DNA from: Anaerolineae bacterium
Lineage (GTDB): Bacteria; Chloroflexota; Anaerolineae; Anaerolineales; UBA4823
Direction of reading: 5' to 3'
Assembly: GCA_003327455.1 (NCBI GenBank)
Contig: QOQU01000008.1
Span: 889 to 64,888, forward strand
Length of the DNA: 64,000 nucleotides
Shown: one piece after another, positions 11,351-59,247 of the stretch
Layout of the letters: each line of letters begins with the position of its first letter
Numbering within the stretch: the first letter of the stretch is position 1
Translations under genes and position numbers: made by a program
Notes under the pieces: generated by a model
Database searches by the model: none
What the model was told of the DNA's origin: nothing
The model's input: only the letters and a program-made list of their open reading frames with translations

Positions 11351-12087
11351 CCCAACTCGAAATTCGCTCGGTATCCCATTGGTTTGGTGGCCTGCAAGCT
11401 CTTAAGGATGTAACCTTTGAAACCAGCGATGAAATCCTTGGGCTGATCGGACCGAATGGGGCTGGAAAAACGACTCTGTTCAATGTGATATCAGGCTTTA
11501 TTGTCCCAACCAGAGGTGAGGTGCGTTTTAACGGGAAAGCCATCCATCATCTGCGCGCCGACCAAACCGTTCGTCTCGGGTTAGCCCGCACGTTTCAAAT
11601 CGTTAAGCCCTTTGCGACCCTGACGGTGGAGGAAAACGTGCTGGTTGGGCTGGGAATGCCCTACTACCCAAAGGCGGCTGCGCTGGTACAAATTTACCGT
11701 ACACCGGTCAATTTAGAAAAAGTCGAGCAGATTTTAGACAAAGTTCACCTGACAGACTATCGCTTTGCCCAGGCTGCCAGGCTGCCAATTGGTTTGCAAC
11801 GCCGTTTGGAAATCGCCCGCGCTCTGGCGACCCAGCCCAAAGTTTTACTCCTGGATGAACCAGCCGCCGGCCTGGTTGCCCAGGAAACGGAAGAATTAGC
11901 TGCATTGATTCGGAGTCTTTATACTGAAGGAATGCACATCATATTGATCGAGCACAATATGCGCTTTGCTATGAATTTATGTCAGCGCATTGTTGTCCTT
12001 TCCCAAGGCGAGATCATCGCTCAGGGTAGCCCGGCTGACATTCAAAACAACGAAAAAGTGATTAATGCCTACCTTGGACAGGAGTGA
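11347..12087 (+). CDS. HAAT ABC ATPase (LivG-like)
   Basis: GPNGAGKTT Walker A and LLLDEPAAG. The start is placed at the ATG overlapping the upstream TGA, not at the ORF-track 11287. Confidence 0.93.
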   Translation: MTQLEIRSVSHWFGGLQALKDVTFETSDEILGLIGPNGAGKTTLFNVISGFIVPTRGEVRFNGKAIHHLRADQTVRLGLARTFQIVKPFATLTVEENVLVGLGMPYYPKAAALVQIYRTPVNLEKVEQILDKVHLTDYRFAQAARLPIGLQRRLEIARALATQPKVLLLDEPAAGLVAQETEELAALIRSLYTEGMHIILIEHNMRFAMNLCQRIVVLSQGEIIAQGSPADIQNNEKVINAYLGQE

Positions 12088-12090
12088 AGA

Positions 12091-12792
12091 ATGCTCACCG
12101 TAGAGAATCTGCATGTGCGATATGGTCAAATTGAAGTCCTGCACGGTGTCTCATTGCAGGTAGGCGAAAGGGAGGTCGTTGCAGTCTTAGGCGCCAACGG
12201 GGCAGGGAAAAGTACGCTCATTAAAACCATTATTGGATGGCTCAAACCTGCCCAGGGTGGCTGCAAGCTCAACAATGAGACCATTGATTCTTTACCGACC
12301 TGGGAAAGGGTTAAACGAGGCATCGCCATTGTGCCAGAAAGCGGAAGACTATTCCGCGAGCTTAGTGTGGAGGATAATTTACGCTTAGGCGCGTACCTGT
12401 CTCAGGAACAAGATACCAGAAAGCAAATAGAAGTTGTCTTTAATCTGTTCCCCATCTTAGCCGAGCGACGAAAGCAAATCGCCAAAACCCTGAGTGGCGG
12501 CGAACAACAAATGTTAGCGATAGGTAGGGCAATGATGTCCAATCCACGTCTATTGTTGATCGATGAGGTCTCAATGGGACTGATGCCCATTTTAGTTAAA
12601 CGCGTCTTCCAGGTGATAAAGGAGTTACCGCAACATAATGTCAGCGTCTTACTGGTTGAACAAAATGCTTTTGAAGCACTAAAAATCGTTCATCGCGCCT
12701 ATGTGTTGGAAAACGGACACCTTGTCCTGGAAGGAAAAGCACAGGAATTAGCCGATAATCCCTTAGTAAAAGCTGCCTACTTGGGCGGATAA
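12091..12792 (+). CDS. HAAT ABC ATPase (LivF-like)
   Basis: GANGAGKST, LSGGEQQMLAIGRA and LLVEQN motifs. Confidence 0.94.
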   Translation: MLTVENLHVRYGQIEVLHGVSLQVGEREVVAVLGANGAGKSTLIKTIIGWLKPAQGGCKLNNETIDSLPTWERVKRGIAIVPESGRLFRELSVEDNLRLGAYLSQEQDTRKQIEVVFNLFPILAERRKQIAKTLSGGEQQMLAIGRAMMSNPRLLLIDEVSMGLMPILVKRVFQVIKELPQHNVSVLLVEQNAFEALKIVHRAYVLENGHLVLEGKAQELADNPLVKAAYLGG

Positions 12793-12816
12793 AAATTGTT
12801 CTTGAAAGGAGGCTGG

Positions 12817-14463
12817 ATGAAAAGAGTAGTTCGTGCGCCGCGAGGCACGCAATTAACCTGTAAGTCATGGCTTACTGAAGCTGCCTACCGGATGATCCAA
12901 AACAACCTTGATCCGGAAGTGGCAGAGCGCCCAGAAGATTTGGTGGTCTATGGCGGACGAGGTCAGGCTGCCCGCAACTGGGAGTGCCTTGACGCTATCC
13001 TGGAATCCTTGAAGAATCTTGAGAACGACGAAACCCTGCTGGTCCAATCGGGCAAGCCGGTGGTGATTTTCAAAACTCACCCCGATGCACCGCGCGTACT
13101 GATCGCCAATTCCAATCTGGTACCTCATTGGGCAACTCAAGAACACTTCGACCATCTGGTCGCACAGGGGTTGATGATGTTCGGTCAAATGACAGCCGGA
13201 TCTTGGATTTACATCGGCACGCAAGGCATTCTACAAGGAACCTATGAGACCCTGGCAGCTCTTGCCAATCAACGTGGCTGGCGTTCACTCAAGGGGAAAT
13301 TCGTCTTGACGGCTGGATTGGGCGGTATGGGTGGTGCTCAGCCCTTAGCCATTACCATGAACGAGGGGGTGGGATTAATTGTCGAAGTCGACCCGCAACG
13401 CGCCAGGCGCCGCCTTGAAATCGGCTACGTGGACACGGTAGTCGATACCCTCGAAGAAGCAATGACCATCGTGGAAGAATGTGTTGAAAAGCAAATTCCG
13501 AAATCGGTGGGGTTGATCGGCAATGCTTCCGACATCTATAATGAACTGGTCATCCGCGGCGTCACACCGGATGTTGTCACCGATCAGACACCTGCCCATG
13601 ATGTCTTAATGTATGTGCCCAGCGGTTTGAGTGTCACAGCCGCCGAAGAATTACGGCGGAATGACCCGAAGGAATATGAAAAGCGGTCCATGGAATCCAT
13701 GGCGCGCCACGTCCAGGCAATGCTGGAATTCAAACGCAAGGGCGCCGAGGTTTTTGACTACGGTAATAATCTTCGACAGCGAGCTTACGATTGGGGCGTG
13801 AGCGATGCTTTCGAATTTCCAGGGTTTGTGCCGGCCTACATCCGCCCGCTTTTCTGCCAGGGTAAGGGTCCATTCCGATGGGTCGCCCTGTCTGGGGATC
13901 CCGAAGACATCTATCGCACCGATGAAGCCGTGATGGAACTCTTCCCCGAAGAAGAGCATCTGCACCGTTGGCTAAAAATGGCGCGCGAAAAGGTTCCCTT
14001 CCAGGGTTTGCCAGCACGAATTTGTTGGCTGGGGTACGGGGAGCGCGCCAAAGCCGGCTTGAAATTCAATGAAATGGTCGCGAAAGGGGAGTTGAAGGCT
14101 CCAATCGTGATTGGGCGGGATCACCTGGATGCCGGTTCAGTTGCCTCACCCAACCGCGAGACTGAAGGCATGAAAGACGGCAGCGATGCCATTTCCGATT
14201 GGCCAATCCTGAATGCCCTGATCAACGCCGTTGGCGGAGCAACCTGGGTATCCTTCCACCATGGCGGCGGCGTGGGTATTGGCTTCAGTCAGCACGCCGG
14301 ACAGGTCATCGTGGCAGACGGCACACCTGAAGCAGCCAGGCGTCTCGAGCGCGTGCTGACCACCGATCCAGGAATGGGGGTTGTGCGTCATGCGGATGCC
14401 GGCTATGAACTTGCCATCGAATTTGCTAAAAAGCACGGCATCAAAATGCCGATGTTAAAGTAG
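12817..14463 (+). CDS. hutU: Urocanate hydratase
   Basis: [50 protein letters not shown] and HHGGGVGIG motifs. ATG at 12817 follows AAGGAGG. Confidence 0.98.
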
Positions 14464-14498
14464 CTCAACTCCACTTCAATATTTATTCTCGGACTTAA

Positions 14499-14524
14499 GG
14501 AGGGCAGACGAAACACTGCCCTCC
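14499..14524. terminator. Hairpin after hutU, between convergent genes
   Basis: GGAGGGCAG/CTGCCCTCC stem. Confidence 0.55.
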
Positions 14525-14608
14525 GTTGTTAATCTCATACCCCGCTAAGTTTTCCAATTGTTTGTTTTCATTATATGCAGGATGAAAATTGATGAAAAGT
14601 CCGCCTGT

Positions 14609-15526
14609 TTAACCCCTGCGCCCAACGAAGTCAAGCTGGTGGACAATCAAGCTCAATTGCCTCTGGTCAATTTGATGGAAGCGTTGTTCCAACCAATCAT
14701 GCAATCGAGCAGGGTCGATTTCACTACGCTCCCTTAAGGATTCCTCCATCATCTGGAGCAGAAAGCGCAAAAAAAGGTCTTCTCCGCTCAGATAGTTCCC
14801 TTCAACTGGATGGATGACCCAATCCGAGGCGCCAGCGCGCAGCAATCGTCCGCCAGCTTTACGAAGGGCGCCCAACAGACGCCGCCCACTATACGCACCC
14901 GCCGAAGGTTTGTCCCCTGCCAAACGCTCTTCCATAGTGCGGTGATAGAGTGAGAGAATCTGCTCATCGAAATGGCCTTCCAACGGTGGATCCATCACCG
15001 TAAGCCCATCGAAGTTAATGGTGAAATAGAAGAGACCGCCCTTCTTCAGGCAGCCCAACAGCAGAGGGAGGGTGGTTTCTAAGTTAACTAAATCCAGGAA
15101 AGCGTGGGCAATGACAAGATCAAACTCCGCTGAAGGATTAACTGTAGCCAGCCAGAGATCGACCTCCCGGGCAATAAATTGAATTTGTAGGTCATGAAAG
15201 GCAGCGCGAATCGCTAAACTGCTCTCTTCGTTTTGAACATCGAATCCCGTACGAATTGCCCAATTTCCCAGATAAGAACGCGCTTCAGCCAGAAAAACAG
15301 AAGAGGCATCCAAAGCAAGATAAGAGGCAAAATGAAGAAAATCCCACTCAATCAGGCGTTGAATCATCGTGCCGATACCGGCCCCGATCTCCAAAACCTT
15401 CCACGGTTGTTCACGCACAGCCCGGGGCATAGCAGCAACCAGAGTTTCCCATACGCTGCGATTGAGTGAACGGTCATCAAGCGCCTTTTTTACTCTTAGA
15501 TATTCGATGAATGTCGCATCATCCAA
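14609..15526 (-). CDS. Class I SAM-dependent methyltransferase
   Basis: VLEIGAGIGT motif I and DLVIAHAFLDL. The start is placed at the TTG (15526) overlapping the GT stop, after a GGAGG SD. Confidence 0.8.
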   Translation of the reverse strand: MDDATFIEYLRVKKALDDRSLNRSVWETLVAAMPRAVREQPWKVLEIGAGIGTMIQRLIEWDFLHFASYLALDASSVFLAEARSYLGNWAIRTGFDVQNEESSLAIRAAFHDLQIQFIAREVDLWLATVNPSAEFDLVIAHAFLDLVNLETTLPLLLGCLKKGGLFYFTINFDGLTVMDPPLEGHFDEQILSLYHRTMEERLAGDKPSAGAYSGRRLLGALRKAGGRLLRAGASDWVIHPVEGNYLSGEDLFLRFLLQMMEESLRERSEIDPARLHDWLEQRFHQIDQRQLSLIVHQLDFVGRRG

Positions 15527-16619
15527 GGTCTCGACCCTCCTGCACAAGTCTAACCAAAAAGTTCCGGATTTTCGCTGCGCTTTCAGCCCAGGTAGGATGT
15601 TCGTCAAAACGTTTTCGCGCCGCCATGCCCATCTGTGCCAGGCGCGCTCGATCCTTATGCAGCGCCAATAGATGATTCCGGAGAACAGATACATCGCCAG
15701 GCTCGATGAGAAAGCCTTCCACCCCCTCGGAGATCAACTCGCTCGCCCCACCCTGGCTTGAGCCAATGACGACCAGTCCGTAGCGCATCCCGTCCAGGTA
15801 GGCAATCCCAAACCCTTCATAAGATGAAGTTAAAACAAGGATGTGGGCGCGTCTCAAAAGCTGTTGAAGCGTGTTTTCATCCACTGCGCCCCAAAACTGC
15901 ACTCGCTCAGTCAGCGCGTTTTGGGTTACCCACCGGCGCAATCGCTGCCCATAAGCTGGCTGACGGCTCTCATCCCCAACAATGTCAAGCCGCAAAGGCA
16001 CATCCCGCAATTGACTTAAGGCAGCCAGCAACCAGTGTAGGCCCTTGCGGGGGATGAGATTGCCAAGAAAGAGCAAGTGTAAATCAGCATTTTGCCTTGC
16101 CCGTCTTTCAATTTCGATCTCATTTATATCGCCGGCGAGATGATCTTTGCCAGGGTAGGCAATAACCGCGGGGAGTTTCTCCTTCATAGTAAGAGCCTGC
16201 ACAGAACGCAGGGTAGCCTGACTGTTGCAAATCAATCCGGCAAGGGTGCTCAAGAAAATGCGCTCAATGATCTGATAGAACCACTTGATCAAACTGCCAT
16301 TGGCTTCGTTACAACGCAGGTGATGCACAATGCTGATGATCGGGAAGCTTGTGCGTCGAGACAAGATATGATTCACAATCGCCAAAGACGGATGATTCAA
16401 TTCGTCTTCGATCAGGATATCTAACTTTTGCCTGCCTAGCGTGCGATATACATCGGGAGAAAGATTATCGGTTAAGTGACGGATATAATTCCGCCAGGGA
16501 AGAGAGAGGATCTCTACCTGATCGCCCTGAGCCTGGAGGTACTCCACCACCTTTCGGTCATAGAGATACCCACCGGTTTGCTGGTAGAGATCACCATAGA
16601 TAACCAGACCGATGCGCAT
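15519..16619 (-). CDS. Glycosyltransferase family 4 (GT-B)
   Basis: TGGYLYDR N-terminus, FLGNLIPRKG and SSYEGFGIAYLDGM (ExFG motif). Confidence 0.9.
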   Translation of the reverse strand: MRIGLVIYGDLYQQTGGYLYDRKVVEYLQAQGDQVEILSLPWRNYIRHLTDNLSPDVYRTLGRQKLDILIEDELNHPSLAIVNHILSRRTSFPIISIVHHLRCNEANGSLIKWFYQIIERIFLSTLAGLICNSQATLRSVQALTMKEKLPAVIAYPGKDHLAGDINEIEIERRARQNADLHLLFLGNLIPRKGLHWLLAALSQLRDVPLRLDIVGDESRQPAYGQRLRRWVTQNALTERVQFWGAVDENTLQQLLRRAHILVLTSSYEGFGIAYLDGMRYGLVVIGSSQGGASELISEGVEGFLIEPGDVSVLRNHLLALHKDRARLAQMGMAARKRFDEHPTWAESAAKIRNFLVRLVQEGRDLG

Positions 16620-35088: not shown

Positions 35089-35100
35089 AAGCTCAAGCAC

Positions 35101-35186
35101 GAAAAGGCAAACCCGACGAAAGTCGGTGACGCAAAGCCATGGGTCTACCGTCATCGTTTGATGACCAGGACTGCCAGGTTACCGAA
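35101..35186 (+). ncRNA. c-di-GMP-I (GEMM) riboswitch 1
   Basis: GGCAAACCC-GACGAAAGTC-GGTGACGCAAAGCC...GGTCTA...GCCAGGTTACCGAA matches the GEMM consensus, with a GAAA tetraloop and G at the position equivalent to G20. Confidence 0.92.
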
Positions 35187-35249: not shown

Positions 35250-35277
35250 TTGAGTGCACTTTACCAATCTGATCCCG

Positions 35278-35367
35278 ACCGATAAAGGCAAACCCGGTGA
35301 AAGCCGGGGACGCAAAGCCATGGATCTACAGCCAGCCATGCTGGCCAGGATAGCCAGGTTACCGAAG
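35278..35367 (+). ncRNA. c-di-GMP-I (GEMM) riboswitch 2 (tandem)
   Basis: GGCAAACCCGGTGAAAGCCGGGGACGCAAAGCC...GATCTA...AGCCAGGTTACCGAA. Confidence 0.92.
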
Positions 35368-35384
35368 CAGTGGAGATTCTTGCC

Positions 35385-35416
35385 AACGGGCTTGGTTATC
35401 CAAGCCCGTTTTATTT
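35385..35416 (+). terminator. Expression-platform terminator of riboswitch 2
   Basis: AACGGGCTTGG-TTAT-CCAAGCCCGTT followed by TTATTT. Confidence 0.8.
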
Positions 35417-35430
35417 GGAGAGTAAATCGA

Positions 35431-37107
35431 ATGAAGACGAACCAACCTCGAACCAGATCAAGCGCCTTTCTCAGCCTATCAAGTCGAAAGGCGCTGAGCG
35501 GGTTTGGCATTTTGGGTGTCCTTCTCCTGATTCTCTCCATCTTACCCATTCGAACCGCCCAGGCTGCATCCTCCTCCAGCTTACCTGCCTGTCAGCCATT
35601 TGTGCAAGTCAATGACAATGCCTTCGGTCTCGGCGGTGGAGCAGATGGTACCTTCAGCTCCGAAGAGGGTTTTGAAGTGCTGGTCTTCAATGGGCAACTG
35701 TACCTTGGCATGGAAGCCGATAACTCCATGGGAGCGCGAATCTGGCGCACAAAAGCTGGCGTGACTGTTCCCTCTTCCCAAGCAGATTGGGAGGAAGTGG
35801 CAGCGAATCCCCAAGGATACCCCTTCGGGGTAAGCAATATCACCCAAAACGACCATATTGACAGCCTGGCTGAATTCAATGGCTATATCTATGCCAGCAC
35901 CGCCAATGGCGGCAGCAGTACATATGGAACACGGGTGTTTCGCAGCCTCACCGGTAATCCAAATAGCTGGGAAGATGCCTTAATCAACATCGGCGCCGGC
36001 TTTGGCAGCACACAGAACACAAATTTCAAAGATATGCAGGTGTTCAATGGCTGGTTGTGCGGCGGCACTCAGAACTGGCTTTACGGGGCTCAGGTCTGGT
36101 GCACCCAGGATGGCCTAAACTGGACGCAAAAAAATATCAGTGGGTTCGGCACTACCGAATACAACAACAAAACTGTCGAGGTCTGGTCGGGATACGTTTT
36201 TCAAGGAGCCCTGTATTTTGGCGTGCAAAATCTCGGCGCAACCCGCTCCAGTAACTATGATGATCTGGGAAAGCTGTATCGAACCCGCAACCTGAACGGC
36301 ACTCCGCAGTGGGAAGAGGTCTTTGTTAGCCTGCCCGGTTACCTGAATCGGGTCGATATCCTTGGGGAATTAAACGGTTATCTCTATGTTGCCAGTCGGG
36401 GTTCCAATGGCGGGACCATCATTTACCGCAGTCCAAACGGCGATCCTGGCACCTGGCAACCTGTCAGCCTTGAAGGGGTCAATGGTAACACCGCCAACAA
36501 CGGTGTGATTGTTGACAGCGCTGTGACTTATGAAGGTGGTTTATATGTGGCAGTTGGCAACAACAGCGGCTTTCAACTGTGGCGTACCTCAGGAGCTGAC
36601 CAGGGCACTGGATTGGTAGATTGGGAACAAGTGGGTGGAAGTGGTTTGAGTGATGCAAAGAATGTCCTCTCAGAGCTTGTGACCTTTAATGGTTATCTTT
36701 ATGCCTGGACAACCAATTACAGCCGCGGTCAACAGGTGTTACGTTCTAACTGCGCTGCTGGGGCGGTGCCGCTATCCCCAACCGCAACGAATACCTCCCA
36801 ACCAAGCCCTACCCCAACGGCAACTCAAACAACTCAACCCAGCCCTACCTCTACAGCTACCGTACCTCCCACAGCTAGCCCTACCCCCACGGTAACTCAA
36901 ACATCTCCAGTTAGCCCAACTGAAACGACTATCCCCACCCAAACTCCGGTTGCTTCTACCACACCCGCTCCCAGCCTGACACCAACCGCTACGCCCACTT
37001 CAGAGACACCACCGTCAGTCTGTCCGCAAGGTGATCAAAGCTGTCAAAGCTCCAATCCAAATAGTTCTCCATATAGCGTATTTATCCCCATTTTGATCAA
37101 ACCGTAA
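35431..37107 (+). CDS. Secreted beta-propeller-like protein with Thr/Pro-rich stalk and C-terminal VFIPILIK tail
   Basis: Signal peptide ending RTAQA, about 6 repeats of the type (L/F)xxFNGxLY...G..(I/V)WR, PT-rich linker. The start is moved to 35431 because 35254 lies within the riboswitch leader. Confidence 0.75.
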   Translation: MKTNQPRTRSSAFLSLSSRKALSGFGILGVLLLILSILPIRTAQAASSSSLPACQPFVQVNDNAFGLGGGADGTFSSEEGFEVLVFNGQLYLGMEADNSMGARIWRTKAGVTVPSSQADWEEVAANPQGYPFGVSNITQNDHIDSLAEFNGYIYASTANGGSSTYGTRVFRSLTGNPNSWEDALINIGAGFGSTQNTNFKDMQVFNGWLCGGTQNWLYGAQVWCTQDGLNWTQKNISGFGTTEYNNKTVEVWSGYVFQGALYFGVQNLGATRSSNYDDLGKLYRTRNLNGTPQWEEVFVSLPGYLNRVDILGELNGYLYVASRGSNGGTIIYRSPNGDPGTWQPVSLEGVNGNTANNGVIVDSAVTYEGGLYVAVGNNSGFQLWRTSGADQGTGLVDWEQVGGSGLSDAKNVLSELVTFNGYLYAWTTNYSRGQQVLRSNCAAGAVPLSPTATNTSQPSPTPTATQTTQPSPTSTATVPPTASPTPTVTQTSPVSPTETTIPTQTPVASTTPAPSLTPTATPTSETPPSVCPQGDQSCQSSNPNSSPYSVFIPILIKP

Positions 37108-37356: not shown

Positions 37357-37389
37357 TAAATTAAATCGTCCTATCATTGTGCGGAGCAC

Positions 37390-37468
37390 ATCGAAAGGGC
37401 AAACCCGCCGTAAGACGGGGACGCAAAGCTGAGGGTCTATTTATCAGAAATAGATAGTCTAGCTGCCG
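37390..37468 (+). ncRNA. c-di-GMP-I (GEMM) riboswitch 3
   Basis: GGGCAAACCCGCCGTAAGACGGGGACGCAAAGCTGAGGGTCTA...ATAGTCTAGCTGCCG. Confidence 0.88.
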
Positions 37469-37500
37469 TGGGTGTTTCTACTAGCGGCAGTTTTTATTTT
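37463..37500 (+). terminator. Terminator overlapping the 3' end of riboswitch 3
   Basis: CTGCCG...CGGCAG stem followed by TTTTTATTTT. The 5' arm is part of the aptamer. Confidence 0.75.
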
Positions 37501-37552: not shown

Positions 37553-39016
37553 ATGAAAGAAAGGGTGGGATATCTATTATTGGCGGTGATCATCGCCCTG
37601 AGCGGAGTGATGATCCTTGGCGGAGTCGCTCTAGCGGCCTCGAATTATGAACCCGCAAGCCCAGAATGTTATAACAAAATCGTCATTAAGAAAGTCACGG
37701 AACCGGCTGGAGGGTCAGCTTTTCCTTTCACCCTCCAATGGGGCACAACAATAAAAAATTTTTCCTTGAACGATGGCGGTGAGACGACCTATTTTCCGAA
37801 TAGTTACAGCGTCTTTACCCTGACCGAGGCGGTTAAAGCAGATTATTACTTGAAGTCGATCTCTTGTAGCGGTCCACCAAATGCCATTTTTAACTACGAT
37901 TTGCCAAACCGACGGGTGATTATTGACCTAAAGACAAACAGAGTTGACGGAACGGTTACCTGTACGTTTACCAACACCCATTACGGCAAAATCACGGTCT
38001 ATAAATTTGAAGACCTGAACGATAATGGACAGTGGGATAATGAGGAACCACCCTTACAAGACTGGCAATTTGATTTATCTGGAGCTAAAACAGCAAGTGG
38101 AAAGACAGATAACAACGGAAAACTTGTCTTCGAAAACCTGATCGCAGGAACATATACCGTCACAGAAAACCTTGAAGACGAATATATTCCTACTACAGGG
38201 TACTTCCAAAAGGTCACATTGAATCCCAATGGAGATGAAACCCGTTATTTTGGCAATCGACGCCTGCAAATGGACTATGGTGATTTACCCTCTGCTTATG
38301 GTCTGACTTTGTTTTCTGAAGGCGGTGCCCGTCATCTACCCCTCGAACAAGGCGATGTCTGGCTTGGTACAAACCGGGATGAAGAGTACGATGGTAATCC
38401 ACACAACGACGCCATGGGGGATGATAACGATGCAACCAACGATGAAGACGGCGTGGTGCGCGGCGCAACCTGGGGTGGCGGCAGCGGGCAAATCTTCGTA
38501 ACCGTCAATGGTCCTTCCTGTCTGATGGGTTGGGTAGACTATGCAACTGTAACCGAAACAGTCCCTACAAACTTGTTCAAAGAGTTTGGGTTCGATCATA
38601 AATTCACTGAGAGTTTTGATAAAGGTGGAAGCATATTCTCCGAGAAAGTGATTGACAATATTCTGTTTACTTCTGCTGGTGTTCATGAGATTACATTTTC
38701 ACTACCGGTGGACTTTGGTAGCGCCAGCGTCTTTGCCCGTTTCCGACTTTCACCCGCCATCCCGGTCAATGGTGACGAGGGTTCAAGCCCTACCGCTGAA
38801 GGCAATGAAACATACCGCTGTCCATCTGTCGACCTTACCGGGCCCGTCCAGGGGGGCGAAGTCGAAGATTATGTGTGGACATTCGGACCCACCGCAATTG
38901 AGCTCAAGCAGATTAACGCTTCACAGCAACGTTCTACTGTTAGCATTGGCTGGATTTCAATTGGCGTGTTGATTGGCACTTCTGCTTTGTGGGTCATCAA
39001 ACGCCGCCGGAAATAA
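37553..39016 (+). CDS. Cell-surface protein with SpaA/SdrD-B-like Ig domains, a GEVED domain and a C-terminal membrane anchor
   Basis: Signal peptide; KITVYKFEDLNDNGQWD...TDNNGKLVFENLIAGTYTVTE; DYGDLP...GGEVEDY; PTAIEL; TM segment plus KRRRK tail. Confidence 0.8.
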   Translation: MKERVGYLLLAVIIALSGVMILGGVALAASNYEPASPECYNKIVIKKVTEPAGGSAFPFTLQWGTTIKNFSLNDGGETTYFPNSYSVFTLTEAVKADYYLKSISCSGPPNAIFNYDLPNRRVIIDLKTNRVDGTVTCTFTNTHYGKITVYKFEDLNDNGQWDNEEPPLQDWQFDLSGAKTASGKTDNNGKLVFENLIAGTYTVTENLEDEYIPTTGYFQKVTLNPNGDETRYFGNRRLQMDYGDLPSAYGLTLFSEGGARHLPLEQGDVWLGTNRDEEYDGNPHNDAMGDDNDATNDEDGVVRGATWGGGSGQIFVTVNGPSCLMGWVDYATVTETVPTNLFKEFGFDHKFTESFDKGGSIFSEKVIDNILFTSAGVHEITFSLPVDFGSASVFARFRLSPAIPVNGDEGSSPTAEGNETYRCPSVDLTGPVQGGEVEDYVWTFGPTAIELKQINASQQRSTVSIGWISIGVLIGTSALWVIKRRRK

Positions 39017-39041
39017 GATCCGTACGAAAGGAGAAAACTAA

Positions 39042-39161
39042 ATGAACAAAGCTGAACAAAAAGTGTATACTGCTCCAGCGATTGTTTTGGAGATGGAATT
39101 AGAAACCCAGGCCGGATCATCCCTGGTACCCAATCTGGATGAATTCTTCGAAGAAGATTAG
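39042..39161 (+). CDS. Small 39-aa ORF resembling a RiPP (lasso-type leader) precursor
   Basis: Strong SD AAAGGAG, then MNKAEQKVYTAPAIVLEMELETQAGSSLVPNLDEFFEED*, then a terminator. It is below the ORF-track length cutoff. Confidence 0.65.
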   Translation: MNKAEQKVYTAPAIVLEMELETQAGSSLVPNLDEFFEED

Positions 39162-39183
39162 AGCCTAGCAATCCGGTAAATCT

Positions 39184-39224
39184 ACCTCCTGCAAGAAACG
39201 AATTTTGCAGGAGGTTTTTTTTTT
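39184..39224 (+). terminator. Intrinsic terminator after the small ORF
   Basis: ACCTCCTGCAA/TTGCAGGAGGT followed by a long T run. Confidence 0.9.
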
Positions 39225-39400
39225 GCAAATCATCAGGTATGATCGACAAAAGGACAATACACCCTACCGATTGTGGAAGGTAACGAAAAACGCGCCGAAA
39301 GACCATCGGGCGAAACGCATCCATCATATTGTGGAGAAAGTTTATTCTCTTAGAGAAGTTTAATCCCCTTGAATTGCCTTCCATCTGCTATAATCAACAC

Positions 39401-40210
39401 ATGGAGAATCCACAGGTAGCCACGAGCATCACTTGCTCTCAGTGCGGCGGCGAACTTCACCCAGAAGTTGGGCAAGTCTTTCTCACCTGTCCATACTGCT
39501 CCTCTACGGTTTACCTCGATAAAAGCCAGGTCGTCTTCCACTGGTATGTCGCCCCCACTCTCGATGAAAAGCAAGCCCGCTCAGCTCTGGCACGCTGGAT
39601 GGCGGGCAACCAGACCGTCAAAGATCTGGATCGCAAAGCCCAAATTAACACTGTATCGTTTGCTTACTTCCCAATGTGGTTGTTCAAACATCAGAAGCCC
39701 AACGGCGAAGATGAACGCCTGCTACTGCCCGCAGCCGCAACTTCGATCAGCGAGTTAAAACACCTGGTATTACCTCCTGGCGACCTGCGTAAACCTACTG
39801 CCGAGATCGACCAGACTGCTCAACCCCCCTCCGTACCACTCGACACAGCACTGGATTGGTTGAAGCAACGCCAGATCGCCACAGAGCGGATCGTCGAGAA
39901 AGCCCTCGTTCATATTCCGATCTATACCTTCAAATATATCTTCAACAATCGCACCTATACAGCCGTTGTAGAGGCTGCCAGCGGTGGCGTCTTTGCCAAT
40001 CTTTACCCTGCAAAAGCCGAAGCGCCATTTCTGCTGATCGGTGGTGTAACCGCTCTAATCTACCTTTGCCTGGCAACTTTCCCCGCCATGGGCGCGCTGC
40101 AAAACGGCGCCAGTGGTTTGGGAGTCGGTCTACTCATTTGCAGTACAGCAGGGCTGGTTATCGCCCCAATCCTTTTTGCGATTGCCGCCTGGATAGCAGC
40201 GAAAATATGA
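39401..40210 (+). CDS. Zinc-ribbon protein with C-terminal TM helices
   Basis: CSQCGG...CPYCSS and two C-terminal hydrophobic segments. The ATG lies 6 nt after a TGnTATAAT element. Confidence 0.75.
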   Translation: MENPQVATSITCSQCGGELHPEVGQVFLTCPYCSSTVYLDKSQVVFHWYVAPTLDEKQARSALARWMAGNQTVKDLDRKAQINTVSFAYFPMWLFKHQKPNGEDERLLLPAAATSISELKHLVLPPGDLRKPTAEIDQTAQPPSVPLDTALDWLKQRQIATERIVEKALVHIPIYTFKYIFNNRTYTAVVEAASGGVFANLYPAKAEAPFLLIGGVTALIYLCLATFPAMGALQNGASGLGVGLLICSTAGLVIAPILFAIAAWIAAKI

Positions 40211-41235
40211 GCGAAAAAGACTCTACTCATGGCCTCAATTGTCCAAAATGCGGTGGGATGATTCGCATCCCCGAAGGGCAGCAACTGGTCATCTGCCCGT
40301 ATTGCCAGCAACGCTCCATTGTGCGCGGCGAGCGGGGAGTTTACCGGTATCAGGTGCCCGTCCAAATCGATCGACCTCAGGCTGAGAAGTTGCTGGAACG
40401 GTTTTTTAACAGCAGTTTTGCCATAGCGCGCAACACCCGCCAGCAGGCTAAACTTGAAGAAAGTTTCCTGGTTTTTCTGCCTTACTACACCAGTTGGGGA
40501 CGGGTACTCGGCTGGGTATTCGGGGAGAAGCGGGTCGGTAGCGGTGACAATAAACGTTATGAACCGCGTGAAGTGCAGTTTGTCCAGGATACCACCTGGA
40601 ACACGGCGGCTTGCGATGTTGGTGAATTTGGGGTCGAGAGCGTCCCTCTGGAAGATAAACCCTTCAACCCTTACAACGATGATGAAATTCATCGCGCCGG
40701 GATGGTCTTTGAACCGGTTGGTTCCCTGAGCGAAGCCCTGCAACGCGCCGAAGATGAGTTTCAAGCTCAGGTGCGCAAAGATGCGCGTCTTGATCGCATC
40801 TCTCAGGTGTTTGTCCGTATTGTGCGCCGGAGGTTCGGGATCGTCTATTACCCTTTGTGGATCTTACGCTATCTCTATCGTGGGCGGGCTTATCAGGTAG
40901 CTATCGATGGTCACAGCGGCCTGATTTTGTATGGAAAAGCGCCCGGGAATACTCTTTACCGGGCTGCTATCCTGGTAGGCGGGATGGCATTGGGAGCCTT
41001 GATCGCTTTTGACATTCCCACTCTTCTGCTTTACTTCGGTCGCAACAGCGATGAGATAGACGGCTTGCTGGTTTTAAGTGGGATTGCCCTGCTAGGCGGT
41101 TTATCCGTCATGTACGCAGCTTATCGCGCCTTCCGTTACGGTGAGGAATACGAATTCCGTTGGAAGAAAAGTCTCTCCAGTGTAGAATGGATTCCTCAAC
41201 AGCTCCTGAAACCGCTTTCGGAGGCGGAGGAATGA
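40207..41235 (+). CDS. Zinc-ribbon protein with C-terminal TM helices (paralogous layout)
   Basis: CPKCGG...CPYCQQ, YYPLWILRY...AIDGHSG. The start overlaps the upstream TGA (ATGA). Confidence 0.75.
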   Translation: MSEKDSTHGLNCPKCGGMIRIPEGQQLVICPYCQQRSIVRGERGVYRYQVPVQIDRPQAEKLLERFFNSSFAIARNTRQQAKLEESFLVFLPYYTSWGRVLGWVFGEKRVGSGDNKRYEPREVQFVQDTTWNTAACDVGEFGVESVPLEDKPFNPYNDDEIHRAGMVFEPVGSLSEALQRAEDEFQAQVRKDARLDRISQVFVRIVRRRFGIVYYPLWILRYLYRGRAYQVAIDGHSGLILYGKAPGNTLYRAAILVGGMALGALIAFDIPTLLLYFGRNSDEIDGLLVLSGIALLGGLSVMYAAYRAFRYGEEYEFRWKKSLSSVEWIPQQLLKPLSEAEE

Positions 41236-41774
41236 GCAGGCTGATTGAACTAGTCCCATTGAATTGTATCCATTGTTCAATGCCAATTGCGGCCGCAGTG
41301 AATGAAGTTGCCTGGGTCTGCCCCACCTGCGGGACAGGCATGGCACTAAACGACGAGGGCGAATTAATACCCTGTGAATTTCATTTTTCGGCAAACCTGC
41401 CTCCTACCGGCAAAGGTAAACCCTTCTGGGTAGCAGAGGGCAGGGTCAGGATCAGCCGCCAATCTTATAACTTGATTGGTAAAAGCGACCAGGAAGCAAT
41501 AAGTTTCTGGAATCAACCGCGTTGGTTCTTTATCCCCGCCTATGAGTGCGGATTAGATGATATGCTTACGATAGGCACCCGCTGGCTAACCACCCCACCA
41601 CCCCTGGTTGAAGGCTCAAAAACCGACTTTGTACCGATCACCCAATCGGCATCGGATGTGCGCGCCTTCGCTGAATTTCTGATCGTTGCTGTCGAAGCCG
41701 CTCGTAAAGATAAAGTCAAAGGTATCCAGTTCGTACTTGAATTGCAACCACCGCTGCTATGGATTCTCCCTTGA
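41232..41774 (+). CDS. Zinc-ribbon protein (soluble)
   Basis: CIHC...CPTCG, GKPFWV and FFIPAY. ATGA coupling after GGAGG. Confidence 0.7.
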   Translation: MSRLIELVPLNCIHCSMPIAAAVNEVAWVCPTCGTGMALNDEGELIPCEFHFSANLPPTGKGKPFWVAEGRVRISRQSYNLIGKSDQEAISFWNQPRWFFIPAYECGLDDMLTIGTRWLTTPPPLVEGSKTDFVPITQSASDVRAFAEFLIVAVEAARKDKVKGIQFVLELQPPLLWILP

Positions 41775-42002
41775 GGCGTTGGTCTCTAGTTAACTTCAGA
41801 ACGGGGAAGCAAGCCATCTGCGTCTGCCCGATTTCAAGCATAGACGCCAGGGTACCAAAGGCAGATGAAAGAGTGCCGACTTTCTTCAAAGGCAACCATT
41901 GCAACTGCCAGACGGCCTCCAGCGATCACCCACGCGCAGGTAAGACTCTTTATAAAACAAGCCAGTCCTGAACGCAAGGATATCTGATAGGGAGTGTGAG
42001 TC

Positions 42003-44495
42003 ATGAAAACCAACGGAAAATTTTATCTGGGGCGTTTGATTGATCCTCAAACCAACAAAACTACCGATCAACCCCTGCTCTATAAATCCGAAGATCTGAC
42101 CACCCATGCTTTTGTGGTCGGGATGACCGGTTCGGGAAAAACAGGATTGTGTATCTGTTTGCTGGAGGAAGCAGCCTTACAAGGCATACCGGCGTTGATT
42201 ATCGATCCCAAAGGAGATATGACCAACATCTTGTTGCACTTTCCCGATTTCGAGCCGCGTGACTTTGAACCATGGATCGACGCCGACCTGGCTCGCCGAG
42301 AAGGAAAGACAGTACAACAAGTCGCTCAAGAGACCGCCATGACCTGGAAACAGGGTTTGGCTGATTGGGGAGTTGAGCCACAGCGGGTAAAAGCCCTTGC
42401 AGAGGCAGCCCATTTTGCCATCTACACTCCCGGCTCGGATAGTGGTATCCCGGTCAATATTCTCACATCCTTTGAAGCTCCTCAGATCGATTGGGATGAA
42501 AACCGCGAAGTGCTGCGCGAAAAGATTTCCGCCACCATAACCGCTCTCCTGGGCTTGGTCGGCTTATCCGACGTTGACCCCTTGCGTTCACGCGAACATA
42601 TTTTACTTTCCAATATCCTCGAACATGCCTGGGTAGCAGGCAAAAACCTGGAGTTAAGTGAACTCATTTTGCAAACCCAATCGCCTCCTTTTACCAAATT
42701 AGGCGTTTTCGATGTAGATACCTTCTTCCCCCAAAAAGACCGTTTCACCCTGGCCATGCTGCTCAATAATATCCTTGCTGCGCCCAGTTTTCAACCCTGG
42801 ATTGAAGGGCAACCACTGGATATCCAGGAACTTCTCTATGCTGCGGATGGACGACCACGCCACAGCATTTTTTACCTGGCTCACCTGAGTGAAACCGAGC
42901 GCATGTTTTTTGTGACCCTGCTTTACACCGCTGTCGAAAGCTGGATGCGCGCTCAACCAGGCAGTGGTTCCTTGCGAGCAATCGTTTATTTCGACGAAAT
43001 CTTCGGTTATTTACCGCCAGTCAGCAACCCACCCTCAAAAACTGTGCTGTTGCGCATGCTCAAGCAAGCCCGTGCTTTTGGCGTTGCCCAGGTCCTGGTT
43101 ACCCAGAATCCGGTGGATATCGATTACAAGGCTCTATCCAACGCCGGCACCTGGTGTATTGGTAAATTACAGACCGATCAGGACAAACAACGTCTGTTAG
43201 ACGGACTGGAAAGCGCGGTGCCTGGAGAGATGAACCGCAAAGACTACGATAAACTCATCTCCAGTTTGGGAAAACGGGTTTTCCTGATGCATAATGTCCA
43301 TGCGAAAGGGCCTCTGCTCTTCCAGACTCGCTGGGCAATGAATTATTTAGCCGGTCCGATCACCCGGGCTCAAATCCCAACTTTAAATCGCCTGGTAAAG
43401 GCTTCCGAAGTTATTGCACCCGAAACCGCCCAACCAGATTCGTCATCCACCCAGGCGACCCTCACTCCTCCCGGCAAAAAAGTTACGAAAACGGATATTT
43501 ATCTTAACACCAAACCACCAGCTCCGAATGCAGTGGCGGAAACCTTCCTACCTGTGCGCGAGAGCCTTACAGAAGCGCTGCAAAAAGCCGGGCTTAACCG
43601 CTCGGCAAGCCAAAATGCCGTCCTGCTTTACCGTCCCCGCCTGTTAGGGCAAGCTCAAATTCGCTATGTAAACCGAAAGATTGGCCTGGATAGCGAAAGC
43701 GCCAAAGCCATCCTGGTGCAAAACCCAGAACGGCGTGGCTTTGTCCGTTGGGAAGAGAACCTTGCTCAACCACTGGACCTGAATCAATTGGAGACGTCTC
43801 CTCTCCCCGATTCGCGCTTTGCGCCTTTAGAAACGCCGCTTTCCGATGCCAGGTTAATGGTTGTAATGCAAAAAGACTTCCTTGATTGGGTATTCCGGAA
43901 CGCCGCTTTAACCATCAAAATCAATGAGAACCTTCAAATAGCCTGTGTGCCGCCGATGAGCGAAGGCGAATTTCGGACACGCTGCGCAGAACTCGCCCGT
44001 CAAAAGCGGGATGAAGAAATAAAAAAAGTTGCCCAAACCTTCGACAAAAAAATTGAAGCCATCAGACTCAAGCTAATCCGCGAAGAACAAGAACTCGAAG
44101 CGGATAAGGACAAGCTCAACCTGCGACGCATGGAAGAAGTCGGCACTCACGCGGAGAATATCTTAGGCCTCTTGGGAGGACGGCGCAGTTCACGACGGGT
44201 TTCGTCCTCACTCACAAAACGCCGCCTGACCAGTCAAGCCAAAGCGGAGGTCGAAGAATCGGAAAAAACCATTGCGCTCTTGAAAGAACAAATTGCCGAA
44301 GCCGAAAAAGCCAAAGCAGCCGCACTTGAAGAGGTCAATCAGCGCTGGGCAGAGATCGCCATGCAGGTTCGAGAGGAAAACATCTTCCCCCAGAAAAAAG
44401 ATGTGTATTTAGCGTTTTTTGGCATCGTCTGGCAACCTTACTATCTTGTTCAAGAGGGCGAAAAGGTAACTGAGGTGCCGGCGTATTCGTTCTAA
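42003..44495 (+). CDS. HerA/FtsK/VirB4-superfamily P-loop ATPase with C-terminal coiled coil
   Basis: GMTGSGKT Walker A, IIDPKGD, YFDEIFG Walker B, ARAFGV and TQNPVDIDYK. The C-terminus is a charged helical region. Confidence 0.85.
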   Translation: MKTNGKFYLGRLIDPQTNKTTDQPLLYKSEDLTTHAFVVGMTGSGKTGLCICLLEEAALQGIPALIIDPKGDMTNILLHFPDFEPRDFEPWIDADLARREGKTVQQVAQETAMTWKQGLADWGVEPQRVKALAEAAHFAIYTPGSDSGIPVNILTSFEAPQIDWDENREVLREKISATITALLGLVGLSDVDPLRSREHILLSNILEHAWVAGKNLELSELILQTQSPPFTKLGVFDVDTFFPQKDRFTLAMLLNNILAAPSFQPWIEGQPLDIQELLYAADGRPRHSIFYLAHLSETERMFFVTLLYTAVESWMRAQPGSGSLRAIVYFDEIFGYLPPVSNPPSKTVLLRMLKQARAFGVAQVLVTQNPVDIDYKALSNAGTWCIGKLQTDQDKQRLLDGLESAVPGEMNRKDYDKLISSLGKRVFLMHNVHAKGPLLFQTRWAMNYLAGPITRAQIPTLNRLVKASEVIAPETAQPDSSSTQATLTPPGKKVTKTDIYLNTKPPAPNAVAETFLPVRESLTEALQKAGLNRSASQNAVLLYRPRLLGQAQIRYVNRKIGLDSESAKAILVQNPERRGFVRWEENLAQPLDLNQLETSPLPDSRFAPLETPLSDARLMVVMQKDFLDWVFRNAALTIKINENLQIACVPPMSEGEFRTRCAELARQKRDEEIKKVAQTFDKKIEAIRLKLIREEQELEADKDKLNLRRMEEVGTHAENILGLLGGRRSSRRVSSSLTKRRLTSQAKAEVEESEKTIALLKEQIAEAEKAKAAALEEVNQRWAEIAMQVREENIFPQKKDVYLAFFGIVWQPYYLVQEGEKVTEVPAYSF

Positions 44496-48708: not shown

Positions 48709-48727
48709 CAAAGCGACAATTCAAGAT

Positions 48728-48852
48728 ACCTTCGGGGCAGGGTGCGGTCGGAAACGACCTATTCCCGATCGGCGGTAAAGCCCGCGAGCGCAAGAAAGCG
48801 CACGATTCGGTGGAACTCCGAAGCCGACGGTATAGTCCGGATGGAAGAAGGT
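48728..48852 (+). ncRNA. FMN riboswitch (RFN element)
   Basis: CTTCGGGGCAGGGTG...ATTCCCGATCGGCGGTAAAGCCCGCGAG...GATTCGGTGGAACTCCGAAGCCGACGGTATAGTCCGGATGGAAGAAG, with P1 ACCTTC/GAAGGT. Confidence 0.96.
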
Positions 48853-48902
48853 CAAGCAGGATAAAGTTTGCGCGCGCCGTTTCTTGACGGTGTGTAGAAT
48901 GC

Positions 48903-59020: not shown

Positions 59021-59098
59021 AGGCTTTGGTTCTTTCTTCGCGTGGGGAAATACGCTCAGAATGCCCGGCCTCCCTTGCCGCGAGGGAGATGACGAGCA

Positions 59099-59227
59099 AG
59101 ATACAGGCGGGTACTCGGGCTTCGCACTTTGTGCGCTACCGTTGCGGGACAGCGCCGGACTTCCCCTTCGGGTCACCGGCTTCCCCCATTCTGCGCCATG
59201 CATCCGGGCATTGGCGCACCTGTATCT
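59099..59227 (-). ncRNA. Cobalamin (AdoCbl) riboswitch
   Basis: Minus strand AGATACAGGTGC...GGGGGAAGCCGGTG...GAAGTCCGGCGCTGTCCCGCAACGGTAG...AAGCCCGAGTACCCGCCTGTATCT, with a 9-bp P1 and a downstream CTCCCTCGCGGCAAGGGAG hairpin. Confidence 0.93.
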
Positions 59228-59247
59228 GGCTATCAGAATTTGGGATA

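Follow-up and report, generated by a model that had tools for sequence, protein, structure and literature searches.

The 64,000-nucleotide stretch of DNA analysed here, which we refer to as the window, lies on contig QOQU01000008.1 of an Anaerolineae bacterium and corresponds to positions 889 to 64888 of contig C3 of the genome, an assembly that is 97.9% complete. On its forward strand is a gene for a 39-residue precursor peptide (39042 to 39161; MNKAEQKVYTAPAIVLEMELETQAGSSLVPNLDEFFEED), and the present work concerns this peptide, its family and the enzymes and surface proteins with which the family is found. The gene stands behind that of a secreted surface protein of 487 amino acids (37553 to 39016, +), which has a signal peptide, SpaA/SdrD-B prealbumin-like domains (Pfam SpaA_4, SdrD_B and SpaA) and a GGEVED motif; the motif, in full GGEVEDY, and the N-terminal signal-like segment were read directly. 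This adhesin ends in a tripartite tail (38882 to 39013, +) in which FGPTAIELKQINASQQRSTV is followed by a hydrophobic helix and KRRRK, a candidate sorting signal. A cyclic di-GMP (c-di-GMP) riboswitch aptamer of the c-di-GMP-I-GGC type (37389 to 37471, +; scored at 68.5 bits by Rfam RF03167, whose gathering score is 59) precedes the adhesin gene, and no terminator was found between the adhesin stop codon (39016) and the open reading frame (ORF) of the peptide. The Shine-Dalgarno sequence AAAGGAG (39027 to 39033, +), read from the sequence, lies 8 nt 5' of the ATG at 39042, and an intrinsic terminator (39184 to 39225, +), consisting of a 13-pair stem with six GC pairs and a T9 run, closes the adhesin-peptide unit. 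A preliminary description of this DNA had placed the peptide, with a strong ribosome-binding site and a strong terminator, at the end of a c-di-GMP-controlled adhesin transcript, and these points are borne out as far as the sequence can be read. Within the peptide, YTAPAI (39066 to 39083, +), whose Y9 and P12 are invariant, is the predicted leader motif for binding by a recognition element (RRE) of ribosomally synthesised peptides that are modified after translation (RiPPs), and ETQAGS (39102 to 39119, +) is predicted, from its conservation and by analogy with the precursor LppA, to be the region of leader cleavage and phosphorylation.

The peptide ORF is a real, conserved gene and not a chance reading frame, because the genome holds seven paralogues with invariant residues, a low ratio of non-synonymous to synonymous substitution (dN/dS) and many clusters of homologues. 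A search for paralogues had been proposed in the preliminary description; tblastn against the genome (3.9 Mb in 20 contigs) found seven, and the homologues recovered elsewhere conserve Y-x-x-P. All seven have a Shine-Dalgarno sequence of the AGGAG or GGAGG type at equal distance and a hairpin downstream, and share M1, Y9, P12, L16-E17, L20-E21, A-G-S-S-L, L32 and E34 without exception. Pairwise comparison of four of them (p1 to p4) gives dN of 0.10-0.24, dS of 0.9-1.9 and dN/dS of 0.1-0.2; the paralogues evolve under purifying selection.

Beyond this genome, a profile search of 5.8 billion proteins gave 54 homologue clusters, all unnamed or 'hypothetical' (one deposited homologue bears the label 'hypothetical protein'), whose named sources are Anaerolineales or Chloroflexota metagenome-assembled genomes (MAGs). 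An exhaustive search of 1.84 billion representative proteins raised the number to 423 clusters at E<=1e-3, with the consensus [KR][KP]-Y-x-x-P-x-I-[IV]-x-E-[LM]-[ED]-L-E-T-R-A-G-S-P. A scan of the GTDB species genomes yielded 27 credible peptide loci, 26 of them in MAGs titled Anaerolineae or Chloroflexota; the other lies on a 2.8-kb contig titled Parcubacteria which, being near-identical to locus L054, is probably mis-binned, and a match in Haloferax was discarded as spurious. The Pfam and NCBIfam models gave no match to the peptide even at E<=10, and a profile search of the PDB chains found nothing.

In alignments of 22 and 34 sequences the Tyr and Pro of the leader motif are invariant, position 14 is I, V or F and there are no insertions or deletions from the Tyr to A-G; E21 is at least 90% conserved, A24 and G25 are invariant and S26 is either invariant or at least 90% conserved. 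The family pattern is YxxPxI[IV]xE[LM][ED]LE[TAVC][RQH]AGS, followed by a variable region that is short, acidic, rich in Pro and Gly and free of Cys, though the tails of distant members are neutral and Pro-rich. The constancy of Tyr and Pro supports the earlier suggestion that YxxPxI marks a leader-bearing precursor of the kind recognised by an RRE. The T-x-A-G-S segment singled out at the same time is conserved in its Ala and Gly, and largely in its Ser; its Thr is replaced in some members by A, C or V. Two outlying sequences deserve mention. At locus L045 (G067:C78, ~9.9-11.5 kb) a divergent member, W-S-E-P-K-I-V-L-E-Q-D-L-E-A-R-A-Q-G-G with a Cys near its end, is placed among a PqqD homologue, a C25 peptidase and a protein that reads as a radical SAM/SPASM enzyme, and it is possible that this member forms a bridge to radical-SAM versions of the cassette described below. 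The protein P0163 of the representative library (208 aa) consists of seven tandem ETNAGSSLGDIV repeats followed by a membrane helix and matched the peptide profile through its A-G-S-S-L region.

The known system that most resembles this one is the pathway of the linear polyphosphorylated peptides (LPPs; Popov et al., Nat Commun 2026, PMC13381572). In Bacillota, where these were described, the precursors have the consensus YxxPxVLxHQxIxFETxxS; their leader is handed by the discrete RRE LppB to LppS, a homologue of archaeal-type signal peptidases (S29, H68, D93), which cuts after T-1 (PMC13381572). The HprK-like kinase LppK polyphosphorylates Ser3, and in LppA the cut falls between F-E-T and A-Q-S (PMC13381572). 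Clusters with the gene set LppA/B/K/S/N/D lie in capsule loci; the family was called Bacillota-restricted, its end product and function were still to be established, and its discoverers speculated on a role in biofilms (PMC13381572). The motif class [Y/W]xxPx[L/V/I] is bound both by LppB and by the B1 proteins of lasso peptides (PMC13381572).

We consider it very probable, arguing by analogy, that the Anaerolineae peptide is an LPP-like, leader-bearing RiPP precursor whose closest known relatives are the LPP precursors. The two families have in common the N-terminal YxxPx[V/I] leader, the E-T..S region and the variable C-terminus, and the associated genes include in both cases a discrete PqqD-type RRE and an archaeal/SipW-type peptidase, with polysaccharide genes nearby; a putative HprK-like kinase, an NTP_transf_5 enzyme and, in some Anaerolineae genomes, MsbA-like exporters are candidate counterparts of the other LPP enzymes. 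They differ in that the Anaerolineae peptides occur in Chloroflexota, that their Ser stands in A-G-S where LPP precursors have x-x-S directly after T, that their cores measure ~13-25 aa as against 45 in LPP, that the cassette adds membrane anchor proteins and a pair of PorU-like C25 peptidases, and that the precursor genes are scattered behind genes for tail-bearing surface proteins with c-di-GMP riboswitches. The new RiPP class suggested in the preliminary description is therefore not a wholly new one: the enzyme set matches that of the LPP pathway (PMC13381572), and it is the PorU-like peptidases and the proteins with sorting tails that are additions.

Judged by homology, the core LPP enzymes other than a dedicated exporter (RRE, S26 peptidase, HprK-like kinase and NTP_transf_5) are encoded in trans in this genome. 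The scanned ORFs of the window, between 30 and 46 kb, include no RRE, peptidase or cyclase gene, and to that extent agree with the original statement that the window holds none. In distant Anaerolineae a cassette runs in the order peptide, C25 peptidase (~1000 aa), S26 peptidase, PqqD, membrane-anchored protein and second C25 peptidase (~720 aa), with an HprK-like gene, two ABC exporters, NTP_transf_5 and tail-bearing proteins as optional members; the membrane-anchored proteins have a conserved extracytoplasmic domain in common. In the present genome the cassette is found on contig C4 (L011 2494-11021), without a peptide gene beside it, as an operon of an HprK-like gene, a C25 peptidase, the S26 peptidase, PqqD, the anchor protein and another C25 peptidase. 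In at least nine distant genomes a peptide gene is flanked by orthologues of the majority of these genes or of the whole set. Tail protein, peptide and C25 are consecutive at locus L076, and at L043 and L044 the genes are HprK, PqqD, tail protein, peptide and C25. Among 151 genomes of the class, searched with a broadened peptide profile, 33 are peptide-positive; a C25 homologue is present in 31 of these (85 of the 151 overall; Fisher test, p = 1.6e-7) and an S26 homologue in 29 (55 overall; p = 6e-12), and many weak peptide matches lie within 10 kb of a C25 match on the same contig. The peptide family belongs with the RRE/S26/HprK-like/C25 cassette.

Maturases acting in trans had been anticipated, with a genome-wide search for PqqD/RRE genes as the means of finding them, and the only strong stand-alone PqqD of the genome (C4:432696-432896, 67.9 bits) does lie on contig C4, in an operon with the leader peptidase and kinase; PqqD adjoins the peptide gene in at least eight other genomes. 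Among solved structures its best relative is LppB (PDB 9x8z_B, E = 3e-4), together with PbaB1 (9x90_B), a lasso chaperone. The S26 protein is predicted to be an archaeal/SipW-type leader peptidase with a Ser-His-Asp triad: it scores 64.9 bits against the archaeal-type signal peptidase model TIGR02228 (cut-off 51.85), and its S36 (TSMYP), H74 (HRVIK) and D89 (KGDN) align with the triad of SEC11 (SEC11A/C). It has no N-terminal helix, and its catalytic domain is therefore probably cytoplasmic. The HprK-like protein (262 aa) has the P-loop GHSGAGKTT and an HprK-type motif region that is invariant in six orthologues. Its AlphaFold2 (AF2) model has a predicted local distance difference test (pLDDT) score of 90 and finds its best fold matches among the phosphoenolpyruvate (PEP) carboxykinases (PEPCK), in keeping with a P-loop kinase fold; the 50 fold matches listed include no HprK structure, and a sequence search of the PDB with the protein gave no match. 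The kinase weakly resembles ScmC/HprK_rel_A, and the PqqD protein ScmD, of the SynChlorMet cassette (TIGR04248-04251) and HPr-rel-A system, although the scores lie far below the cut-offs and the cassettes of the peptide family are without radical SAM enzymes.

Both C25 proteins have signal sequences and match Pfam Peptidase_C25 (254 and 200 bits), and the GH...C dyad is invariant in 16 orthologues of the two types. Against the models of PorU sortases (T9SS_sortase and PorU2) they score 183-236 bits, below the cut-offs of 420-450; the T9SS_sortase scores are 233 and 183 bits for an equivalog cut-off of 420. NTP_transf_5, a nucleotidyltransferase of the kind that the preliminary description had also proposed to look for, is encoded by one gene of this genome (175.6 bits) and occurs inside the cassette of genome G004 too. 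It is convergent with a peptide-less tail-bearing gene whose product is of no known fold (the two genes together at C1:414066-416901), in surroundings that read directly as an exopolysaccharide locus (Wzz-like protein, UDP-GlcNAc 2-epimerase, GDP-mannose dehydratase). ABC exporters adjacent to the cassette were seen only in G047 and G090.

A few further observations concern the cassette and its enzymes. Among the nine large C25 proteins of the cassettes (L011 7030-7075 and the L034-L045 orthologues), eight end in the short conserved tail [FY]-[LAF]-P-[LMWR]-[LIV]-x-[KR]-[RNP], as in IFLPLLKR, VYLPLLRR, MLPLILKN, YLPWLARR and YFPRLKRP, while that of G146 ends otherwise and the small C25 proteins lack such a tail. 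The C4 cassette (L011) is flanked downstream by a bacterial alpha-2-macroglobulin gene (11542-15999, >1486 aa) and upstream by a divergent gene for a large M23-peptidase protein (3-2528). Elsewhere, L012 7618-10983 (C1:107.6-111 kb) holds two radical SAM enzymes, one with SPASM and one with a PqqD-like N-terminal part, and a methyltransferase, which may be a separate RiPP cluster. The radical SAM/SPASM pair with its RRE-like domain (C1:107.6-110.2 kb) was considered as a maturase of the peptides and rejected, the peptides having no Cys and the pair never being adjacent to them.

All seven peptide genes of this genome lie 20-60 nt 3' of a gene for a large secreted protein, on the same strand, and these client proteins (428 to 1615 aa) are of at least three unrelated types; the adhesin of the window shares 48-55% identity with those of p2 to p4 over the C-terminal 260-360 residues. 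The only feature common to the client types is the tail [FV]-G-P-T-[AS]-[VI]-x-L-[KR]-x-[IVMF]-x-A, represented by the peptide ...YVWTFGPTAIELKQINAS...; after it come ~10 residues, then a hydrophobic helix, and the protein closes with RRRRK or a different basic sequence. A pattern scan of the genome found nine tail-bearing proteins, seven of which have a peptide gene directly behind them. The arrangement recurs at 17 of the 27 loci from the GTDB scan, where the peptide gene follows a tail-bearing gene by 18-70 nt (217 nt in one), the tails including the variants G-S-T-S-A-I-Q-L, G-G-T-A-I-T-L and P-P-T-A-I-T-L. At locus L049 (JGI metagenome 3300045115, a 1.26-kb contig; 25-420) the tail of a GEVED-type adhesin and the peptide share one ORF, with no stop codon between ...LVWNREKK and VAMKSES...YVAPAIIHEMDLETRAGSPL..., which, on this single contig, may be a fusion that occurs in nature or may come from an error in sequencing. 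The link to surface-protein expression drawn in the preliminary description is thus upheld by seven of seven copies and by their counterparts in other MAGs, usually with c-di-GMP riboswitches.

From its sequence layout we regard GPTA[VI]xL, transmembrane helix and basic tail as a candidate for an undescribed C-terminal sorting signal. With the tripartite signals LPXTG/sortase, PEP-CTERM/exosortase, IPTL-CTERM and MYXO-CTERM it has in common a motif, a helix, an Arg/Lys end and multiple copies on secreted proteins; it differs in the motif itself, in the C25 peptidase as the neighbouring candidate enzyme and in the peptide gene behind the client gene. In NCBIfam, the LPXTG and MYXO-CTERM entries match the tails (14-17 bits) only over their unspecific segment of helix and basic residues, and no model was found that covers GPTA[VI]xL. 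Exosortase was dismissed as the tail-processing enzyme, PF09721 being absent from the genome, as was mimicry of the adhesin tail by the leader (PAIVLE compared with PTAVEL), for which profile-profile comparison returned a probability of 0.08.

Aptamers of the c-di-GMP-I clan stand ahead of the adhesin genes of p1, p2, p3 and p4 (four of the seven pairs) and ahead of nine of the ten related adhesin-peptide units tested in other MAGs, and no riboswitch was found on the maturation cassette of L011 or on nine other cassettes; the supply of peptide is thereby linked to the switch of each individual adhesin. The window also holds tandem c-di-GMP-I aptamers (35096-35186 and 35277-35366, +; 75 and 85 bits) that precede the ORF 35254-37107 (<=617 aa; no Pfam or NCBIfam match), and the same tandem pair is kept in the syntenic locus L054 of MAG Nak19.

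Taken together, these findings make it likely that the peptide is both an LPP-like precursor and functionally coupled to the tail-bearing proteins, and it probably helps to anchor or process them. A more specific proposal, which we advance only tentatively, is that the matured peptide serves as an acceptor or linker, consumed once per adhesin, in a sorting reaction of the PorU type; it is suggested by the pairing with clients, by the homology to PorU and by the small, invariant residues with which the matured peptide would begin. Following the LPP pathway, the leader (M1 to ~T22-A24) would be bound through Y-x-x-P-x-I by the stand-alone PqqD-type RRE of contig C4, which would present the peptide to the HprK-like kinase, the likely target being the conserved Ser of A-G-S, and to the S26 peptidase, which would remove the leader near E-T-[RQ]-A|G-S; the NTP_transf_5 enzyme and an ABC exporter would probably act next. 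On the outside of the membrane, the adhesin would lose its C-terminal tail to the PorU-like enzymes, which would then couple the protein to the peptide through the amine of the peptide's new N-terminus, one acidic peptide being used per adhesin, and the phospho- or glycosyl-Ser of the peptide would attach the product to the envelope or exopolysaccharide.

PorU, the C25 sortase of type IX secretion (T9SS) in Bacteroidota, joins its cargo to anionic lipopolysaccharide (A-LPS), a parallel to the joining of adhesin and peptide proposed here. Like the two enzymes of the cassette it is exported and has the C25 fold with a His/Cys dyad, and the proposed logic is the same, a C-terminal signal being removed and the cargo attached to an anionic component of the envelope. 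The differences are that the candidate signal is here a short motif with a membrane helix and not a folded C-terminal domain, and that the candidate acceptor is a ribosomal peptide and not A-LPS. To our knowledge T9SS has not been described in Chloroflexota, though its core genes were not searched for in this genome, and we found no paper linking PorU or C25 with PqqD, HprK or Chloroflexota in this sense.

Several points weigh against this reading. The spacing of the leader differs from that in LppA, with 13 residues from Tyr to Thr (15 in LppA) and 4 from Thr to Ser (3 in LppA), and the cleavage site and target Ser are therefore uncertain. No register fits both rules of the LPP consensus (Tyr at -16, Thr at -1, phospho-Ser at +3): the cut would fall after A24 (T-Q-A|G-S-S) by the Tyr distance of 16, after T22 by E-T, or after Q23 if the Ser is residue 3, and the candidate core N-termini are GSSLVPNLDEFFEED or AGSSL.... 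The NCBIfam matches of the kinase (TIGR04352, TIGR04249) reach 24-33 bits where the cut-offs are 125-200, no dedicated exporter was found next to the C4 cassette of this genome, and for two of the nine tail-bearing proteins no peptide gene follows. The adhesin-peptide pairs have in part been duplicated together, such that the seven are not seven independent events. The C25 enzymes could be simple proteases, transpeptidation being purely our inference, and the tails could instead be processed by sortases, which the genome also encodes, one at a distance of 1.5 kb from the p4 pair.

The strongest competitor, which we judge rather unlikely but worth serious attention, is that the peptide gives a free LPP-type product, a secreted signal or a component of the biofilm matrix, that is co-expressed with the adhesins at high c-di-GMP and never joined to them, the C25 peptidases trimming the peptide or the adhesins independently. 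Such a product would call on the same set of enzymes, a biofilm role for LPPs has been raised by their discoverers (PMC13381572), riboswitch co-regulation alone could explain the pairing in operons, and most genomes have a single peptide copy that lies in the cassette and not beside clients. However, the recurrent one-to-one pairing with unrelated tail proteins, at 18-70 nt and across genera, exceeds what co-regulation needs, an in-frame fusion of adhesin and peptide is hard to account for in this way, and the short, acidic, Pro-/Gly-rich and Cys-less variable region is more linker-like than signal-like.

We think it improbable that a sortase, for example the DUF11-sortase near p4, acts on the GPTAVxL tails, with the peptide and the C25 cassette serving some other purpose. 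The genome has three sortase-domain matches, one of them (C1:477011-480073) being that neighbour of the p4 pair; the helix-plus-basic architecture of the tail is that of LPXTG anchors, and F-G-P-T-A is loosely like LPxTA. Yet the match to the LPXTG model TIGR01167 (14-17 bits) aligns only positions 10-33 of the 34 in the model, which correspond to the helix with its basic tail, and leaves out the LPXTG positions themselves; the motif stands 13-18 residues before the helix and not 3-9 as in LPXTG; a canonical LPATG protein in the genome is available as the sortases' own substrate; and no cassette includes a sortase, whereas in several genomes the genes for tail protein, peptide and C25 adjoin one another. 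The C1:477011-480073 gene (L007 10015-13074, -) encodes 1020 aa with four DUF11 repeats and a C-terminal sortase domain, and is separated from the p4 pair by a gene for an OmpR-type response regulator.

A cytoplasmic escort, in which the acidic tail of the peptide (EFFEED) would bind the RRRRK of the adhesin and hold or deliver it non-covalently, seems to us very unlikely. The charges are complementary in p1 to p4, and the L049 fusion, if natural, would keep the peptide at the cytoplasmic end of the anchor helix; set against this, the conserved part of the peptide is the RRE-type leader with A-G-S and not the tail, which is neutral in distant members, and the peptide gene heads a maturation cassette with leader peptidase and kinase. 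As for the lasso precursor weighed in the preliminary description, with B and C enzymes encoded elsewhere, the YxxPxI leader, a Thr two residues before the Ala and the nearly equal score of the RRE with PbaB1 (9x90), a lasso chaperone, recall the phosphorylated lasso peptides of the paeninodin type, which also have a [Y/W]xxPxL leader, a B1 RRE, an HprK-like kinase and a nucleotidyltransferase, but this reading, the least probable of all, is contradicted, as the B2 peptidase (PF13471) has no match at E<=1 in so complete a genome, the sole match to the cyclase family PF00733 (Asn_synthase; 20.1 bits) is below cut-off and unlinked, neither occurs in the cassettes examined, the first acidic residue has no fixed ring position (core position 10 here, counted from A24, and 7 to 12 across the family) and position -2 is taken by T, A, C or V.

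Elsewhere in the window, the stretch 39329-44495 (+), immediately past the terminator, holds overlapping ORFs without a family match and then an 830-aa HerA/DUF87-type ATPase, and Rfam also identifies an FMN riboswitch (48724-48856, +), a cobalamin riboswitch (59089-59238, -) and an L10 leader (1873-2024, +).

The LPP-type family, previously reported as confined to Bacillota, is extended to Chloroflexota, and it gains its first concrete functional lead in precursor genes that are tied to PorU-like peptidases and, gene by gene, to c-di-GMP-controlled adhesins. What is new is the connection to PorU-type sorting, the candidate C-terminal signal and the control by c-di-GMP. With candidate enzymes, clients, signal and co-substrate all defined, both the purpose of LPP-like peptides and the role of PorU-like peptidases outside type IX secretion become directly addressable. 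If the acceptor model is true, it would constitute a previously unrecognised mode of anchoring surface proteins and provide a first function for LPP-type RiPPs, and it would name the clients and the sorting signal of the PorU-like/PqqD/HprK/S26 cassettes; it would also represent a new use of RiPP chemistry and, possibly, a tool for peptide ligation.

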